IMG/VR virus record: IMGVR_UViG_3300036985_007703
Location: 32,001 to 96,000 of that record
Strand: one strand, 5' to 3'
Length of the DNA: 64,000 nucleotides
Source: a virus
In this document: one piece after another, positions 9,848 through 22,668 of the stretch
Layout: every line of letters starts with the position of its first letter
Numbering within the stretch: the first letter of the stretch is position 1
Program-made: the position numbers and the translations under genes
Notes under the pieces: generated by a model
Told to the model about the DNA's origin: nothing
Database searches by the model: none
Seen by the model: only the letters and a program-made list of their open reading frames with translations

Positions 9848-10705
9848 TTAGTTGCGCTTGCGCCGCTGCCCCTTGGCCGGAGCCGCGTCCCGCGCCGGCG
9901 TCCGCCCCACGCGAGGCTCCTGCCAGGGGTGCCGCCAGACCGCCACCGCCACGCGCCCCTCGTCGCCGTCCGCCAGGTCCAGGGCCCGCACCCACGCCGG
10001 GGTCTCCTCCAACGCGCGGACCACGTCCGCGTCCGAGGCCTCCGCGCCCTCTGCCCCCCACAGGGCATGGGGGCGCCCCGTGTCGGGGTCCTCGTACCGC
10101 CACTCCGCGAGCCGCGCGCGCCACTCGTCCGGCGGCACGCCCTCCTCAGGGATCGGCTCCCAGGCGAACCAGGCCGTCAGGGGCACGCTGTCGCCCCCCG
10201 GCTGGGGGCGCCGCGCCCAGGACCGCCGCCCCTTATTGGGGAAGCCCGCGCTCGTCGCCTCGACCAGGCTCCGCAGCCGCTGGCTCAGCGACACGGCCTC
10301 GCCCTTCAGCGTCCAGGGCCCCTCGAACTCCGCGCGCCTCTTGCCCACGAGCTTGTAGTACTTCGCGTCCTTCGCGGCGTGGTTCCGGTCCTTCTGGTGC
10401 TTCTGGATGTACTTGCGCCCGCGCGGCGTCTGCTGGTGCGGCTTCGTCCGCTTGAAGTACGGCAACTTGGGCCCGTGGTGCAACGCCGCGACCCCGCGCG
10501 CGATGGCGTGCGCCGTCGGGGCGTCCGAGCGCCGCGGGGGCCCCTTCTTCCGCAGCCCCCCCACGATCGCCACCACGGCATGCCGCGTGTAGGGGTCCGC
10601 CGCCCGCGGCTTCTGCACCTTGATCGCGGCGCCCCCGTGGGGCGTCTTCCCCTCGACCAGGGCCCGCAGGCGCGCGCTGAGCCGCTCCCCGCGCGTCAGC
10701 AGCAC
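9848..10705 (-). CDS. Putative internal head protein with two leader motifs (basic module plus second module)
   Basis: LSARLRALVEG near the N-terminus and LSQRLRSLVEA internally; start uncertain (GTG 10705). Confidence 0.6.
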   Translation of the reverse strand: MLLTRGERLSARLRALVEGKTPHGGAAIKVQKPRAADPYTRHAVVAIVGGLRKKGPPRRSDAPTAHAIARGVAALHHGPKLPYFKRTKPHQQTPRGRKYIQKHQKDRNHAAKDAKYYKLVGKRRAEFEGPWTLKGEAVSLSQRLRSLVEATSAGFPNKGRRSWARRPQPGGDSVPLTAWFAWEPIPEEGVPPDEWRARLAEWRYEDPDTGRPHALWGAEGAEASDADVVRALEETPAWVRALDLADGDEGRVAVAVWRHPWQEPRVGRTPARDAAPAKGQRRKRN

Positions 10706-10709
10706 GGCG

Positions 10710-11033
10710 TCAGATGCTCCACGCATCCCAGGCCGCCTCAAACTGCTTGTGCGCCTCGGCCACGGCTGCCTGCGCCTCGAAGATCTCCCGCGCGCCCTTC
10801 GCCATGTCCGTGGCCTGGTATTCCCTAATCGGCACGTCGATCTCCCAGTGCATCAGCGGGCGCACCCCCGCCATCTCCTTGCGCTTCTTCTCCAGGCCCT
10901 TCACCGCCTGGGTCAGGGCCTCCGCCGCCTTGAGGACGGGGTCCACCTTGGGGATCGGCTTGCGGGTCTTCAGGATCTCCGCCGGGATGGTCACCTCGTC
11001 CAACTGCCGGATCAGCGCCTTCATGCTCCTCAT
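10710..11033 (-). CDS. Putative internal head protein (leader MRSMKALIRQLDE)
   Basis: ATGA overlap; shared leader motif. Confidence 0.65.
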   Translation of the reverse strand: MRSMKALIRQLDEVTIPAEILKTRKPIPKVDPVLKAAEALTQAVKGLEKKRKEMAGVRPLMHWEIDVPIREYQATDMAKGAREIFEAQAAVAEAHKQFEAAWDAWSI

Positions 11034-11359
11034 ACGGGTCTCCCCATCGCGAGTTCCCAGGCGTTCATCACGCCCCACTTGGCCTCGTCAATAGCGATCA
11101 GTTGCTCCTGGTACGCCGACATCGCCTGGCGGTCCGCCCGGTCCAGCCCCTTGACCAGCTTGGCCAGGGCCGCGACCTCCTTGTCGAACCGCGCCACCGC
11201 CGCATGCACGCCCTTGAGCACGGCCTCCGTCGGCACGTGCATCTGCTGGTTCCGCTGGTCGATCTCGCGCCGCCGCGCCTCCTTCGACTGGAAGTCCCCC
11301 GGCGCCACCTCGCGCCGCCGCTGGACGCCCTCGATCACCGCGCTCATCCGCTGTGCCAT
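11030..11359 (-). CDS. Putative internal head protein (leader MAQRMSAVIEG)
   Basis: GGAGGAG RBS; shared leader. Confidence 0.65.
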   Translation of the reverse strand: MAQRMSAVIEGVQRRREVAPGDFQSKEARRREIDQRNQQMHVPTEAVLKGVHAAVARFDKEVAALAKLVKGLDRADRQAMSAYQEQLIAIDEAKWGVMNAWELAMGRPV

Positions 11360-11361
11360 CG

Positions 11362-11706
11362 TCACTCCTCCGTATCGGGGTGGGCCGCGCCGTGCGCGAA
11401 CCCCACCTGGAACAGCAGCCCGTCGACCGCCTTGTTCAGCGCGATCACCGCCGCCTGCATGCGGGGGTCCGTCGCCGGGCGGTCCAGCCCCTGGACCAGC
11501 TCCGCTACGCGCCCCGCCGCCTGCTGCAGCGCCGCCGCCTTGGCCCCCGCGGCCTGGCGCGCGTTGGCCACGCCCCGCGCATCCTGCGGGGAGCGCCACG
11601 CCACGTTCATCCCGCTGGTGACCTGCCCCCAGTTGGGGGGCACGCCCTCGGCCAGCAGCCCCGAGGCGACCAGACTCGCCTCGATCATCGTGCGCATGCG
11701 CGTCAT
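11362..11706 (-). CDS. Putative internal head protein (leader MTRMRTMIEA)
   Basis: AAGGAGG RBS; shared leader. Confidence 0.65.
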   Translation of the reverse strand: MTRMRTMIEASLVASGLLAEGVPPNWGQVTSGMNVAWRSPQDARGVANARQAAGAKAAALQQAAGRVAELVQGLDRPATDPRMQAAVIALNKAVDGLLFQVGFAHGAAHPDTEE

Positions 11707-20636: not shown

Positions 20637-20645
20637 GGCCCCAGC

Positions 20646-20948
20646 CTACCGCCGCGCGGGCCGCCCCGCAAGCTCGTCCCCCGCCCCCGATGGCACGAGC
20701 CCCGCCGCCTCCGCCTTCTCCTGCAGCGCCTTGAGCGCGAACGCAAACAGCTCCGCCGGGGGATGCCCATAGGCCCGCCCCAGGGCCCGCGCGCGCTCCC
20801 AGGTGTCCCGCGTCACGAGCATCATCACCAGGTCGTCGTGCTGGAGGTCGGCGTCCGGCCGCGGGTCGAGCTTGCCGTCCTCGGCCCCCGCGATCTCCCG
20901 CTGCGGCCCCCCGCGCGGCCCCCCGCGCGCCTGTGCCCGCATCACCAT
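20646..20948 (-). CDS. Hypothetical protein
   Basis: TGATG coupling to upstream gene. Confidence 0.55.
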   Translation of the reverse strand: MVMRAQARGGPRGGPQREIAGAEDGKLDPRPDADLQHDDLVMMLVTRDTWERARALGRAYGHPPAELFAFALKALQEKAEAAGLVPSGAGDELAGRPARR

Positions 20949-21706
20949 CAGATGGCCGTCTGGTCGAGCTTGCCCACGCTGTGATCCGCCCCGTTCCAGG
21001 TCTTATCGTCGAGCTTGTACGGCGCCGCCCCGCTCCCCACCGCGTCCTTCTGCCGCCCCACGTAGGTCACGCCCTTCATGGGCTGCTGCACCACCTGCCG
21101 GAACGTCAGGGCCACCGTAGCGAGCCGCGGCACGCCGTTCGAGAAACAGAGGCTGTACGTCACGTCGCAGCCCGTCATCACCGCGAAGATCGCGTCCCCG
21201 CCCTTCTCATTCCAGTTGAGCCCCGGCGCGTGCAGGATCGCGATCGGCGGGGGGTACGCCTCCACGTGCGTCTCCCCCTGCATGTACAGGGGGTAGCAGA
21301 ACGCCCGCAGGTAGCGGATGGCCCCCGCGACGTCCGAGTTCCACTTCGGCGAGTCCGACCCCTTCGTCATCCCAAAGGGGTCGAAGAGCTTCTCCATCAC
21401 CGTGCGGTCGCCCTCCGGCTTCATGAGCCGGCTCATGGTGACCTCGAACGAGATCGTGCGCCCCCCGTTGCTGCCCCACGTCGCGAGCGCGTGCGAGGCC
21501 CCAGGGATCTCGCTGAAGTTCCAGCCGATCTCGATCGTGTCGGAGATGCTCTCGGGCCAGTACTGGAAGGCACGCTGCGGGATCGCGGGCTTCCCCGCGT
21601 CCGCCGCCAGCGCGTCGATCCCGCACATGCTCATCCACGCCGGCTTCTCGCCGGTGGGCCCGTCCATGATAATGCTGGCGATGCCGCCGAAGACCCCGAG
21701 GGCCAT
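20948..21706 (-). CDS. Tail-tube initiator / CIS-tube (gpU, Afp7/Pvc7-like) baseplate protein
   Basis: FQYWPESIS...W...IPG...W...GGRTISFE...PPP...VMTGCDVTY..F..GVPRLATVALTFRQ pattern. Confidence 0.75.
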   Translation of the reverse strand: MALGVFGGIASIIMDGPTGEKPAWMSMCGIDALAADAGKPAIPQRAFQYWPESISDTIEIGWNFSEIPGASHALATWGSNGGRTISFEVTMSRLMKPEGDRTVMEKLFDPFGMTKGSDSPKWNSDVAGAIRYLRAFCYPLYMQGETHVEAYPPPIAILHAPGLNWNEKGGDAIFAVMTGCDVTYSLCFSNGVPRLATVALTFRQVVQQPMKGVTYVGRQKDAVGSGAAPYKLDDKTWNGADHSVGKLDQTAI

Positions 21707-21732
21707 GCCTCACCTCCCGCGGCGCCCCGCGC

Positions 21733-22668
21733 TCACTCCGCCGCGTCGATCGTGCGCATCGCGAGGTCCACGGTCCGCGCGCTCACCTTCGCGTTCAGCC
21801 GCTGCAACTGCGAGGGGGGGAGCCCCAGCTCCCGCAGGGGGGCCTTCGCGCGCTGCACGAACCGCTGCGCCTGGTCCACCAGGGGCCCCGCAGCCGCGAG
21901 CACCGCCGCCGCCTCGCCGTCCTCCGTCAGCGCCCCGAGCGCATCGACGAGGAGCGACGCGTAGACGTAGGCGAGCCCCGCCTGCGCCACCTCGTTCGGG
22001 CTGACCACCGTGGCCTCCGCGACCGCCTTGCCCCTGCCGCCCTTGCCCTTGCCCTTGGCCTTGCCCTGGCAGGCCTCGCACCCAGGGCAGTCGCACCCCG
22101 TGCAGCCCTTGCCCTTGGCCGCCTTCTTCTTGCCCTTGCGCCCCTCATCGAGGATCGCCCGGAGCGACGCCAGCAGGGGGTCCGCCCCCTCCATCTCGGG
22201 CTCCGCGTCGGCCGCGCTGCCGTTGGGCTCCTCGGGCTCCAGGTCCTGCGCCCCCTCGTCCTCCAGGTCCGCGCCCTCGTCGCCCTCCGCGATGGCCCAG
22301 CCCACGGCGCCCTCCGCGTCGATCGCCAGCATCGTCTCGTCGTCGAGCATGATCACGGCGCCCGGCGGGTCCTCATCCAGCGCCACCCCCACGACCTCGG
22401 CCGTGGTGTCCGCCGGCACCTCGACGGCCTCGCCGTCCTCCGTGTATGCGATCGTGTCGCTGACCGCGACGAGGGGCACGCCCTCCTCCCAGCCCGCGAA
22501 CAGGTCCTCCTCGGCCATCGCGTTGGGCTCCTCCGGCTCCAGGGCCTCCCCGTCGCCTTCGAACCCCGCGTCCACGGTCTCGCCCTCGGCCTCCGCGCCC
22601 TCGCGCACCACGGCCACGGCCTCGCCCGCCTGCCCCTTCAGGGCCTCCATCAGTGCTCGCATCGTCAT
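21733..22668 (-). CDS. Highly acidic leader-tagged protein (scaffold/core-like)
   Basis: MTMRALMEA leader; LEPEEPN twice; internal LRAILDEG; CTGCDCPGCEAC flanked by Lys-rich runs. Confidence 0.7.
   Translation of the reverse strand: MTMRALMEALKGQAGEAVAVVREGAEAEGETVDAGFEGDGEALEPEEPNAMAEEDLFAGWEEGVPLVAVSDTIAYTEDGEAVEVPADTTAEVVGVALDEDPPGAVIMLDDETMLAIDAEGAVGWAIAEGDEGADLEDEGAQDLEPEEPNGSAADAEPEMEGADPLLASLRAILDEGRKGKKKAAKGKGCTGCDCPGCEACQGKAKGKGKGGRGKAVAEATVVSPNEVAQAGLAYVYASLLVDALGALTEDGEAAAVLAAAGPLVDQAQRFVQRAKAPLRELGLPPSQLQRLNAKVSARTVDLAMRTIDAAE

Follow-up and report, generated by a model that had tools for sequence, protein, structure and literature searches.

A large block of unrelated genes in a T4-like phage shares a leader that probably serves as a diverged capsid-targeting propeptide

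Nineteen of the 22 minus-strand genes (own gene call) at positions 9848-22668 of the analysed window, a 64,000-nucleotide stretch of phage DNA, carry a common short leader ending in Glu. It is rather likely that the leader constitutes a T4-style capsid-targeting propeptide, borne by about 27 cargo proteins, cut after its Glu, with the cargo ejected together with the DNA. As judged from the sequence, the tagged proteins probably enter the capsid and lose their leader there in the manner of the T4 internal proteins, on a far larger scale. The signal, which the first-pass annotation called new, is no novelty in kind and is best regarded as a diverged counterpart of the T4 capsid targeting sequence. 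In the proposed scheme, the leader would dock each tagged protein onto the scaffolding core during prohead assembly, the gp21-type serine protease would cut after the Glu of L-x-E, treating capsid and core proteins likewise, and the mature bodies would be released inside the head and exit with the DNA at infection. The block would represent the larger of two cargo-gene clusters in a genome with about 27 cargo genes; cassettes are exchanged fast between close relatives, and some cargo would be produced as proteins of several modules with tag-like cut sites at the joints. Packaging, docking, cleavage, head retention, ejection and any anti-restriction or other anti-defence role stay at the level of inference, as no body but the zincin-like one has a recognisable function.

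All 18 leaders listed in the first-pass annotation were found in frame on the minus strand, and its estimate of about 19 proteins agrees with the gene call. The leader lies within the first 1-13 residues in 18 genes and is only internal, at residue 75, in the 222-aa ORF (Table 1). Three ORFs (285, 173 and 222 aa) have a further leader copy in their interior or are duplicated in some other way, and three genes (252, 100 and 123 aa) lack the leader. The block consensus is h-[RSKQ]-x-L-[ILM]-E-[AG], with a longer variant that ends in RLxE. A fixed pattern, [ML][RSKQG]x[LMV][ILMV] followed by E or x[RQL][LM]xE, was searched for in the N-terminal 16 residues of all 234 proteins predicted from the 168.5-kb genome, with 300 residue shuffles. 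It yielded 22 N-terminal matches versus 0.48 expected (shuffle mean; maximum 4), 15 of which fall in the block; among the genome's predicted proteins it also matches internally 14 times, early genes partly included. With a weight matrix trained on the block leaders only, 24 N-termini scored at least 11.4 bits, followed by a gap down to the next best (8.5). Seven of the 24 are outside the window, six at 102-107 kb of the genome and one at 142 kb. In the matrix ranking no other window gene attains 8.5 bits, so the motif is missing from the window's tail, baseplate and early genes, as originally claimed. The block is not composed purely of tagged genes, nor is it the sole leader cluster in the genome. 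Both clusters are embedded in or border on tail genes, not head genes, an arrangement that runs counter to the main reading.

Table 1. Features of the block and its surroundings in window coordinates (slash, putative cut after Glu)
Position	Strand	Feature	Leader	Basis or remark
22708..22725	.	18-bp palindrome (TGCGCA)x3		just upstream of the block's first gene
21733..22668	-	tagged, 311 aa	MTMRALME/A	matrix, motif; no Pfam or PHROG match
20948..21706	-	untagged, 252 aa		CIS_tube E 2.9e-4, below the Pfam cut-off; homologues in L008-L016
20646..20948	-	untagged, 100 aa (MVMRAQARGG...)		kept in relatives
20322..20636	-	tagged, 104 aa	MKQLIERME/A	pattern, matrix
19345..20124	-	tagged, 259 aa	MAAMRQLLE/A	motif; basic body, pI 9.9
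19321-19338		(TGCGCA)x3, further copy
17606..19294	-	tagged, modular, 562 aa	MRLSERLGSLME/R	motif, homologue comparison
17223..17606	-	tagged, 127 aa	MGTMRAMLE/A	replaced in near-identical phage L007
16763..17122	-	tagged, 119 aa	MMPLSARLRALIE/G	motif, matrix
16038..16706	-	222-aa ORF	MSSLIERLQE/G	pattern; leader copy internal, residue 75
15780..16022	-	tagged, 80 aa	MHTMSTLIE/G	motif, matrix
15424..15780	-	tagged, 118 aa	M(EAPMRK)MRALIE/A	motif, matrix
15059..15427	-	tagged, 122 aa	MTMRALIE/G	motif, matrix
13708..15066	-	tagged, 452 aa	MRELLTLLE/AAPAPGS	helical domain, then HELGH zincin-like metallopeptidase
13687-13704		(TGCGCA)x3, further copy
13400..13675	-	tagged, 91 aa	MRTLLGRLEE/T	absent from L007
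13123..13407	-	tagged, 94 aa	MRELLQRLE/G	absent from L007
12706..13077	-	untagged, 123 aa (MTMAVSTQV...)		kept in L007 and L011
12174..12695	-	173-aa ORF	MESMQALIE/R; MTKMQSLIRRLEE/A	two copies, at the start and at residue 87
11716..12105	-	tagged, 129 aa	MQKMSTLIGRLHE/A	motif, matrix
11362..11706	-	tagged, 114 aa	MTRMRTMIE/A	motif, matrix
11030..11359	-	tagged, 109 aa	MAQRMSAVIE/G	motif, matrix
10710..11024	-	tagged, 104 aa	MKALIRQLDE/V	motif, matrix
9848..10705	-	285-aa basic ORF, pI 10.5	LSARLRALVE/G; LSQRLRSLVE/A	residues 9 and 140; start codon uncertain
9816-9833		(TGCGCA)x3, further copy		just past the final gene

The leader is an amphipathic helix of 7-14 residues with hydrophobic residues at positions 1, 4, 7 and 8, typically reading M-x-x-M-R-x-L-I-E followed by A/G. 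In each of the 28 leaders a hydrophobic residue, in most cases L, I or M, stands two positions before the E, with any residue between them. The copies within the genome are written with differing synonymous codons, so that conservation resides in the peptide, not in the DNA; the peptide is also kept, again with different synonymous codons, across relatives spanning 51-70% GC. The residue following the Glu is A/G in this genome and K/R/Q in low-GC relatives, and the exact cut point is thus unfixed by conservation. Against the main reading, L-x-E is a very short motif, and helices rich in L, E, A and G are common in a 70% GC proteome.

Judged from its genes, the source is an uncultured T4-like phage with T4-type head genes. 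It encodes a gp23-type capsid protein (Gp23 PF07068, E 3.5e-63; T4 gp23 structures matched at E 7e-25), a gp20-type portal (Portal_T4 PF07230, E 3.1e-49) and a gp21-type protease (Peptidase_S77 PF03420, 60.5 bits versus a cut-off of 27). Fused to a coiled-coil scaffold domain, the protease aligns with the structure of T4 gp21 (PDB ID: 5jbl) over residues 26-163, with the catalytic His in ELDHP and the Ser in GVSSRG. T4 gp21 cuts after L/I-X-E (PMC9026906). Capsid residue 73 aligns with residue 26 of mature T4 gp23*, which places the T4 cut at about capsid residue 48; at the corresponding place the capsid protein contains ILLE52/N, kept as h-h-E-N in six relatives. Three presumed core proteins encoded beside the portal contain 40 [LI]xE sites versus 16.1 expected (2.5-fold, z 6.8), and leader-like sites occur in them: LAALEE/G at the protease/coiled-coil boundary, LIGLLE/G, GRLEE/G and MRNLAHLIE/A. 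The leader ends and the capsid site fit the gp21 L-x-E rule, a specificity that the phage's own protease would be expected to share.

The cargo bodies range from 78 to 562 aa and, consistent with the initial view that they are unrelated, an all-against-all BLASTP of the leader-less bodies (n=28) detected only two weak pairs. Bodies with a pI of 9.3 or higher make up 14 of the 28, others being neutral or very acidic; the basic half suits the main reading, but that it is only half, unlike in the T4 internal proteins, counts against it. The body of the 311-aa protein, for instance, is very acidic (pI 4.1) with a middle part rich in Cys and Lys. In keeping with the main reading, no membrane-spanning segment was found in any cargo body. 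The bodies show no recognisable function except for one zincin-like metallopeptidase, and a search of the ESM Atlas with the 259-aa protein gave no usable match. The [LI]xE sites within the bodies (34 observed versus 32.3 expected) are not depleted, and there is therefore no evolutionary footprint of protease exposure.

The exception, the 452-aa cargo, is a predicted zincin-like metallopeptidase. Its AlphaFold2 model (pLDDT 80) comprises an isolated helix (residues 2-10), a loop (11-16) and then the body. Among its 332 homologues, the full-length ones start with a similar short N-terminal helix, ended by Glu in most; in the orthologues the leader varies (MRELLTLLE, MRQLVRQLEE and MRELLQRLAE) and the Glu always abuts the AAPAPGS linker. 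His336, Glu337, His340 and Glu390 are invariant across 37 homologues. Matches to Pfam are sub-threshold, and Foldseek returned weak matches to zinc peptidases (PDB ID: 4l7a and lethal-factor-type domains; E ~0.02, TM ~0.2-0.3). The zincin domain recurs in giant multidomain proteins, together with Topoisomerase I, SprT-like and InPase domains. Modularity is also evident in the 562-aa cargo, which contains the internal sites ALME/A and AMGE/A and whose homologues keep the leader while modules are swapped or inserted at h-G-E/A junctions. In the 222-aa ORF a ribosome-binding-like GGAGGGGG precedes the internal leader, so that this ORF is either a fusion of two modules or contains a nested start.

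The leader and its arrangement recur in relatives. In whole-genome comparison, G002 (176 kb, 51% GC, terminal repeats) and G005 (169 kb, 59% GC, about 91% complete), whose capsid proteins are 56% identical to that of the source phage, each contain about 18-20 genes starting with M[RK]xLIE, in two clusters and with different codons. No cultured member of the clade was found, the best capsid match in the phage collection being ~35% identical. Phage L007 shares 96% DNA identity with the source on both sides of a variable stretch (window 17944 to 13087), in which six source cassettes are exchanged for three others, also leader-bearing, and two further source cassettes are missing. The block is bracketed and subdivided by (TGCGCA)x3 palindromes, of which the window contains nine copies versus 0.12 expected. 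The three untagged genes are probably structural, as they lack the tag and are conserved in relatives. The 252-aa protein, weakly similar to contractile-injection tube proteins and encoded next to an 812-aa neighbour in all relatives, is probably a tail or baseplate part.

Cassettes that differ between 96%-identical phages and among clade members are unlike essential structural parts, and about 27 unrelated bodies would be an unlikely number for a scaffold. It is therefore unlikely that the tagged proteins enter the prohead via the leader merely as scaffold, core or inner-body material, either chopped and expelled or retained as a DNA-organising filling, instead of as host effectors. One cargo is moreover a conserved, predicted zincin-type peptidase, with a domain recurring in giant multidomain proteins of the type termed polyvalent by Iyer and colleagues (PMC5512222). 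Such a structural role would nevertheless accord with the T4 core proteins gp22, gp67 and gp68, which are cut at many L/I-X-E sites and then lost (PMC9026906), with the same motif in the portal-adjacent proteins, with the chance level of [LI]xE in the cargo bodies, where internal cutting could occur, and with the lack of an enzyme-like signature in any body but the zincin. Alternatively, the leader might be a docking helix for some other shared partner, such as a loading site in the tail lumen or baseplate, a chaperone of the phage, or an adaptor for export or partition, with the head protease uninvolved. Both clusters are within or adjoin tail and baseplate genes, a tube-like protein is encoded inside the block, and amphipathic helices can bind many partner types, but this seems quite improbable: the leader occurs on no recognisable tail, baseplate or fibre protein, hhE[AG] occurs 0 times in 17,083 tail residues versus 4.6 expected, and the capsid and core proteins share L-L-E sites. 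What never varies is the Glu where leader and body meet, and this points to cleavage rather than mere binding.

A third reading, in which the common N-terminus is left over from shared ancestry or acts as a nucleic-acid signal (translation start or recombination joint) rather than as a protein address, is very improbable given the codon differences among the copies in this genome and between relatives (51-70% GC), the bodies of 78 to 562 aa without detectable mutual similarity, the leader copies inside ORFs at module junctions, and the independently widespread zincin domain. The two weak body-to-body similarities and the bracketing palindromes would suit it, as would the repeated DNA elements accompanying the variable internal-protein loci of T-even phages in the account of PMC2839356. 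The favoured reading, already outlined in the first-pass annotation as a capsid leader cut after Glu on a large modular cargo set, fits the T4-type head genes, the L-x-E ends, the capsid LLE/N site, the conservation of the leader and the turnover of cassettes, whereas the three untagged genes of the block fall outside it.

The closest parallel is provided by the T4 internal proteins, otherwise unrelated proteins with a common N-terminal leader of ~10 residues (PMC9026906, PMC3012670, PMC8442874). In T4 IPIII, the N-terminal ten residues are enough to direct a protein to the head, and the targeting residues among them are those at positions 4 and 7 (PMC9026906). The T4 tag, MKTYQEFIAE (PMC8442874), shares the hydrophobic positions 1, 4, 7 and 8 and the L/I-x-E end, often followed by Ala, and both systems combine gp21-, gp23- and gp20-type head genes with non-conserved cargo. 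However, the present leader (M-R-x-L-I-E or ...R-L-x-E) has no sequence homology to the T4 tag, the only identities being Met1 and Ile8; about 27 tagged genes per genome compare with only three or four in T4, basic bodies make up just half of the set, and the protease forms one protein with a coiled-coil scaffold domain. The internal-protein loci of T-even phages are hypervariable, with >30 variants group-wide, and their products have been read as proteins injected for adaptation or defence (Repoila et al. 1994; Comeau et al. 2007, both cited in PMC2839356). As far as that account describes them, they resemble the present system in having two variable loci, leader-tagged cassettes differing between close relatives and repeated DNA elements alongside; unlike there, a similar number of variants sits in one genome here, and the accompanying element is the 18-bp palindrome instead of a promoter-stem-loop.

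In phiKZ, 201phi2-1 and SPN3US, gp21-like proteases process inner-body and ejection proteins at S/A-X-E; as proposed here, a diverged gp21 homologue cleaves many proteins inside the head after Glu, and redundant cut sites occur in propeptides (PMC9026906, PMC7411985). Those phages are without a single shared N-terminal leader, P3 is a small residue there and Leu here, and their cargo includes paralogue families and a virion RNA polymerase. In phages and conjugative elements, polyvalent proteins consist of several modules; they are believed to accompany the DNA and to yield effectors when cut (Iyer et al. 2017, PMC5512222). The recurrence of the 452-aa cargo's zincin domain in giant proteins and the module swapping of the 562-aa family at cut-site-like junctions recall them, although the cargo here is mostly encoded by separate small genes with their own tags, not as one giant polypeptide. 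Encapsulin cargo-loading peptides are likewise short tags that direct unrelated cargo into an HK97-fold shell, usually C-terminal, not removed, and involving neither DNA nor ejection; the present leader differs in being N-terminal and, as proposed, removed, in a particle that would contain DNA and eject its cargo.

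The block comprises 22 consecutive genes on a single contig of 168,532 bp (69.6% GC), of which the window takes in bases 32001-96000. Large tail-fibre and baseplate genes lie immediately upstream of the block, and genes for nucleotide metabolism and methylases follow downstream. All 234 genes predicted from codon bias lie on the minus strand; near-total one-strand coding also marks two relatives, G002 (236 of 242 genes) and G005 (224 of 229), and is unusual among T4-like phages. The leaders quoted in the first-pass annotation are all present in frame, and its statement that nearly every gene of the block is tagged holds for 19 of the 22, three being untagged; the leader falls within the first 1-13 residues in 18 of the tagged proteins and is only internal in one. 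Across the genome, 22 N-termini, 15 of them in the block, fit a fixed pattern (h-[RSKQG]-x-[LMV]-[ILMV]-E or its extension x-[RQL]-[LM]-x-E), whereas 300 shuffles give a mean of 0.48 and a maximum of 4. A weight matrix was trained on the block only and tested outside it: 24 N-termini score at least 11.4 bits (next best 8.5). Seven of these fall beyond the window: one is at 142 kb of the genome, and the other six, at 102-107 kb, are flanked by a tape-measure-sized gene and by tube/sheath genes. Many leaders take the form M-x-x-M-R-x-L-I-E, in which positions 1, 4, 7 and 8 are hydrophobic. Interior copies occur in three ORFs, and a ribosome-binding-like sequence precedes those at 16481 and 12425. 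An expectation-maximisation motif search on N-termini was dropped: it settled first on the initiator Met and later on a diffuse L-R-A-L-x-E that took in far too many proteins.

The claim that the remainder of each protein is unrelated agrees with BLASTP among 28 leader-stripped bodies, which yields only two weak pairs. No hydrophobic span occurs in any of the 28, and 14 are basic (pI at least 9.3). Nothing scores above cut-off in Pfam and PHROGs for 20 block proteins or in Pfam for 10 tagged proteins of one relative, an ESM Atlas search with the 259-aa cargo gives no usable match, and a near-identity search of the block DNA against a phage collection returns none. The T4 late promoter TATAAATA has zero copies within the window, so expression timing cannot be inferred by that route.

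Features of the window and of the head-gene region (window coordinates unless stated; L002 and L003 are loci of this genome)
Feature	Coordinates	Remarks
Block	9848-22668 (-)	
562-aa cargo	17606-19294 (-)	
452-aa cargo	13708-15066 (-)	zincin-like
259-aa cargo	19345-20124 (-)	
Untagged 252-, 100- and 123-aa genes	20948-21706; 20646-20948; 12706-13077	
ORFs with interior leader copies	16038-16706; 12174-12695; 9848-10705	
(TGCGCA)x3 palindrome	22708-22725; 19321-19338; 13687-13704; 9816-9833; also 37996, 48582, 61373	18 bp
Protease-scaffold, 534 aa	L002:12695-14299 (genome 128695-130299)	N-terminal Peptidase_S77 (gp21) domain, then a scaffold-like coiled coil of roughly 350 residues
295-aa ORF	L002:15547-16434 (genome 131547-132434)	adjoins portal
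984-aa ORF	genome 134314-137268 (spans L002/L003)	just upstream of portal gene
352- and 377-aa genes	4200-6394	adjacent; N-termini DNA methyltransferase-like
Thymidylate-kinase-like gene	2807-3511	GADGAGTTTQ
Fibre-like array, set 1	48603-58644	coordinates are those of the whole array (both sets); seven genes, 302-351 aa, MALTKVKTW-like starts
Fibre-like array, set 2		three or four genes (320, 504, 929 aa) interleaved with set 1, starting M(A/S)RQETPRF(R/K)(F/L)PYP

Published work on T4 provides the frame for these leaders. The protease gp21 cleaves behind the Glu of L/I-X-E, which was originally observed as a Glu-Ala bond; for head loading, residues 1-10 of IPIII are sufficient, 4 and 7 mattering for targeting and 8 and 10 for processing (PMC9026906). 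The T4 tag is MKTYQEFIAE (PMC8442874). T-even internal proteins form a diverse set with only the tag in common (PMC3012670), and more than 30 variants occupy two highly variable loci (PMC2839356).

The genome encodes T4-type head genes outside the window, including a Gp23-family capsid protein (E 3.5e-63; identity to cultured phages about 35% or less) and a portal (E 3.1e-49). The domain of the protease-scaffold corresponding to gp21 aligns to the T4 gp21 crystal chain 5jbl, with a His and a Ser at what we take to be the catalytic positions; in T4, gp21 and gp22 are separate proteins. Leader-like sites are present in the capsid and scaffold proteins (proposed cuts are marked by a slash): LAALEE/G sits exactly between the two domains of the protease-scaffold and LIGLLE/G near its end, and two unnamed proteins between portal and protease, which by gene order may occupy the gp67/gp68 position of T4, contain GRLEE/G and MRNLAHLIE/A. 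In these three proteins [LI]xE is 2.5-fold enriched (z 6.8), to which coiled-coil periodicity may contribute. In a structure-based match, capsid-protein residue 73 pairs with residue 26 of mature T4 gp23, which places the T4 cut near residue 48; ILLE52/N lies in this region and is kept as h-h-E-N in five relatives with capsid proteins 54-58% identical to this one. A second site, KWGQLLE33/G, is kept in three of six capsid proteins. The capsid N-terminus EARNILTE, conserved as EARxhhE, looks leader-like but fails to score with the weight matrix, and is at most a hint of such an element.

Two ORFs adjoin the portal gene. The 295-aa ORF is coding along its whole length (third-position GC about 1.0) and carries an in-frame palindrome (RMRMR) followed at residue 112 by the leader copy MRNLAHLIE/AG, which is either an internal start or a point where a core protein is cut internally. 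Position and a Walker-A-like GGSTGWGKT suggest that the 984-aa ORF is a putative large terminase; by eye, an intein-like insert with an HNH-like stretch inside (HHRNGVKTDNRPDNIE) seems to run in it from AGC/FVGETRIPL to VFVHN/S.

Homologues of the neighbouring 812-aa protein were aligned, and a search with this alignment retrieved ten viral contigs. In three low-GC relatives the syntenic stretch contains runs of small genes starting with MRELIER, MKELIEK, MRKLIDR and similar sequences. Two relatives were scanned along their whole length: in G002 (176 kb, 51% GC, terminal repeats), 21 N-termini match the pattern where 1.95 would be expected, with leader clusters at 5-18 kb and 150-153 kb, and G005 (169 kb, 59% GC, about 91% complete) has about 17-20 leader genes, clustered at 80-86 kb and 142-148 kb. 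The residue after the leader Glu is A or G in this phage and K, R or Q in the low-GC genomes, which reduces the conserved core to M-R-x-L-I-E. A closer contig, L007, shares 96% identity with the window over 26000-17944 and once more below 13087. In the interval it matches only in short stretches of 74-89% identity, and six of the genes found here are replaced by three others of 361, 285 and 131 aa, all of which begin with a leader or something like one. The 91-aa and 94-aa block genes are also absent from L007. Distant relatives keep the untagged genes of 252, 100 and 123 aa, and the 252-aa protein weakly resembles contractile-injection tube proteins; the three are therefore probably structural parts, not cargo. 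Leader-coding DNA as the recombination joint for cassette exchange is not supported, the L007 breakpoints not being simply aligned with leaders. The (TGCGCA)x3 palindrome occurs in nine copies in the window against 0.12 expected; its copies bracket the cargo block exactly, divide it into three sub-blocks and, read in one frame, encode RMRMR shortly before some leaders. Repeated DNA elements at T-even internal-protein loci (PMC2839356) offer a parallel.

Homologues of the 562-aa cargo all start with MRLSERLGxLxE (one starts MTNYSERLGLLIE), but their modules vary. In one, 64 residues are inserted between AMGEAA and PMGEAA, another lacks the first 190 residues so that the leader abuts the next module, and the C-terminal module switches exactly where one relative has DMGEA; from these inserts, losses and swaps, the modules seem to be joined at h-x-E/A. 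For the 452-aa cargo, 332 homologues reach E 0.001 or lower. Its full-length homologues open with a similar short N-terminal helix, Glu-ended in most, and in the closest three the leaders MRELLTLLE, MRQLVRQLEE and MRELLQRLAE all meet the same AAPAPGS linker. The AlphaFold2 model (pLDDT 80, pTM 0.71) contains an isolated helix (2-10), a loop (11-16) and then the body. H336, E337, H340 and E390 are invariant in 37 homologues, and Foldseek gives only weak matches of the model to zinc peptidases. The zincin-like domain recurs in giant proteins with Topoisomerase I, SprT-like and InPase domains; giant multidomain proteins of this kind are described as polyvalent and as co-delivered with DNA (PMC5512222). 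As a side possibility, the zincin-like cargo, not the head protease, might cut the module junctions after injection.

The simplest reading, with moderate confidence, is that about 27 genes carry a diverged T4-style capsid-targeting propeptide. Confidence is lowered by the very short motif, by cargo bodies undepleted in cut sites, by the fact that only half of the bodies are basic, and by clusters that adjoin tail genes, not head genes. The tagged proteins might instead be core or inner-body material and not delivered effectors, which is unlikely; the absence of detectable depletion of cut-site motifs in the cargo bodies supports neither side. Quite unlikely, too, is a leader serving as a docking helix for another partner. 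That the shared N-terminus is a relic or a nucleic-acid signal is highly improbable: the signal is in the peptide, not in the DNA, with leader copies in the genome differing in Arg, Leu, Ser and Glu codons and the 51% GC relatives encoding the same peptide with AGA/AGG, TTA/TTG, ATA/ATT and GAA.

On the capsid-targeting reading, a broader picture can be proposed tentatively. A deep-branching uncultured T4-like clade may have built capsid targeting up into a library: some 20-30 proteins per genome, or about one gene in nine, would be tagged, with fast cassette exchange, modular polyproteins whose joints are tag-like cut sites, and a zincin peptidase that is injected. The head would then work as a vehicle for protein delivery in general, and the 7-14-residue leader would be an address tag portable among cargoes in GC-rich hosts. 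The description of the leader as a new targeting signal is apt for its consensus, which differs from that of T4, but not for the principle, which is already known from T4; the scale, the modular cargo and the conservation across an uncultured clade (51-70% GC) are likewise new. If the tag works as in T4, the phage head packs far more different proteins than that of any studied T4 relative, most of them with no known fold or function. An unstudied clade would then supply a ready-made set of candidate injected effectors, perhaps counter-defence proteins, along with a second, independent capsid-targeting sequence to compare with that of T4, and a short tag to try for loading foreign proteins into phage heads. 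The tag and the Glu junction stay invariant while the cargo changes even between genomes that are 96% identical, a pattern that shows how such arsenals evolve.

Elsewhere in the window, sequence reading suggests a methyltransferase-like gene pair and, after it, a thymidylate-kinase-like gene. Paralogous fibre-like genes form a tandem array of two interleaved sets, which looks like several alternative receptor-binding sets.
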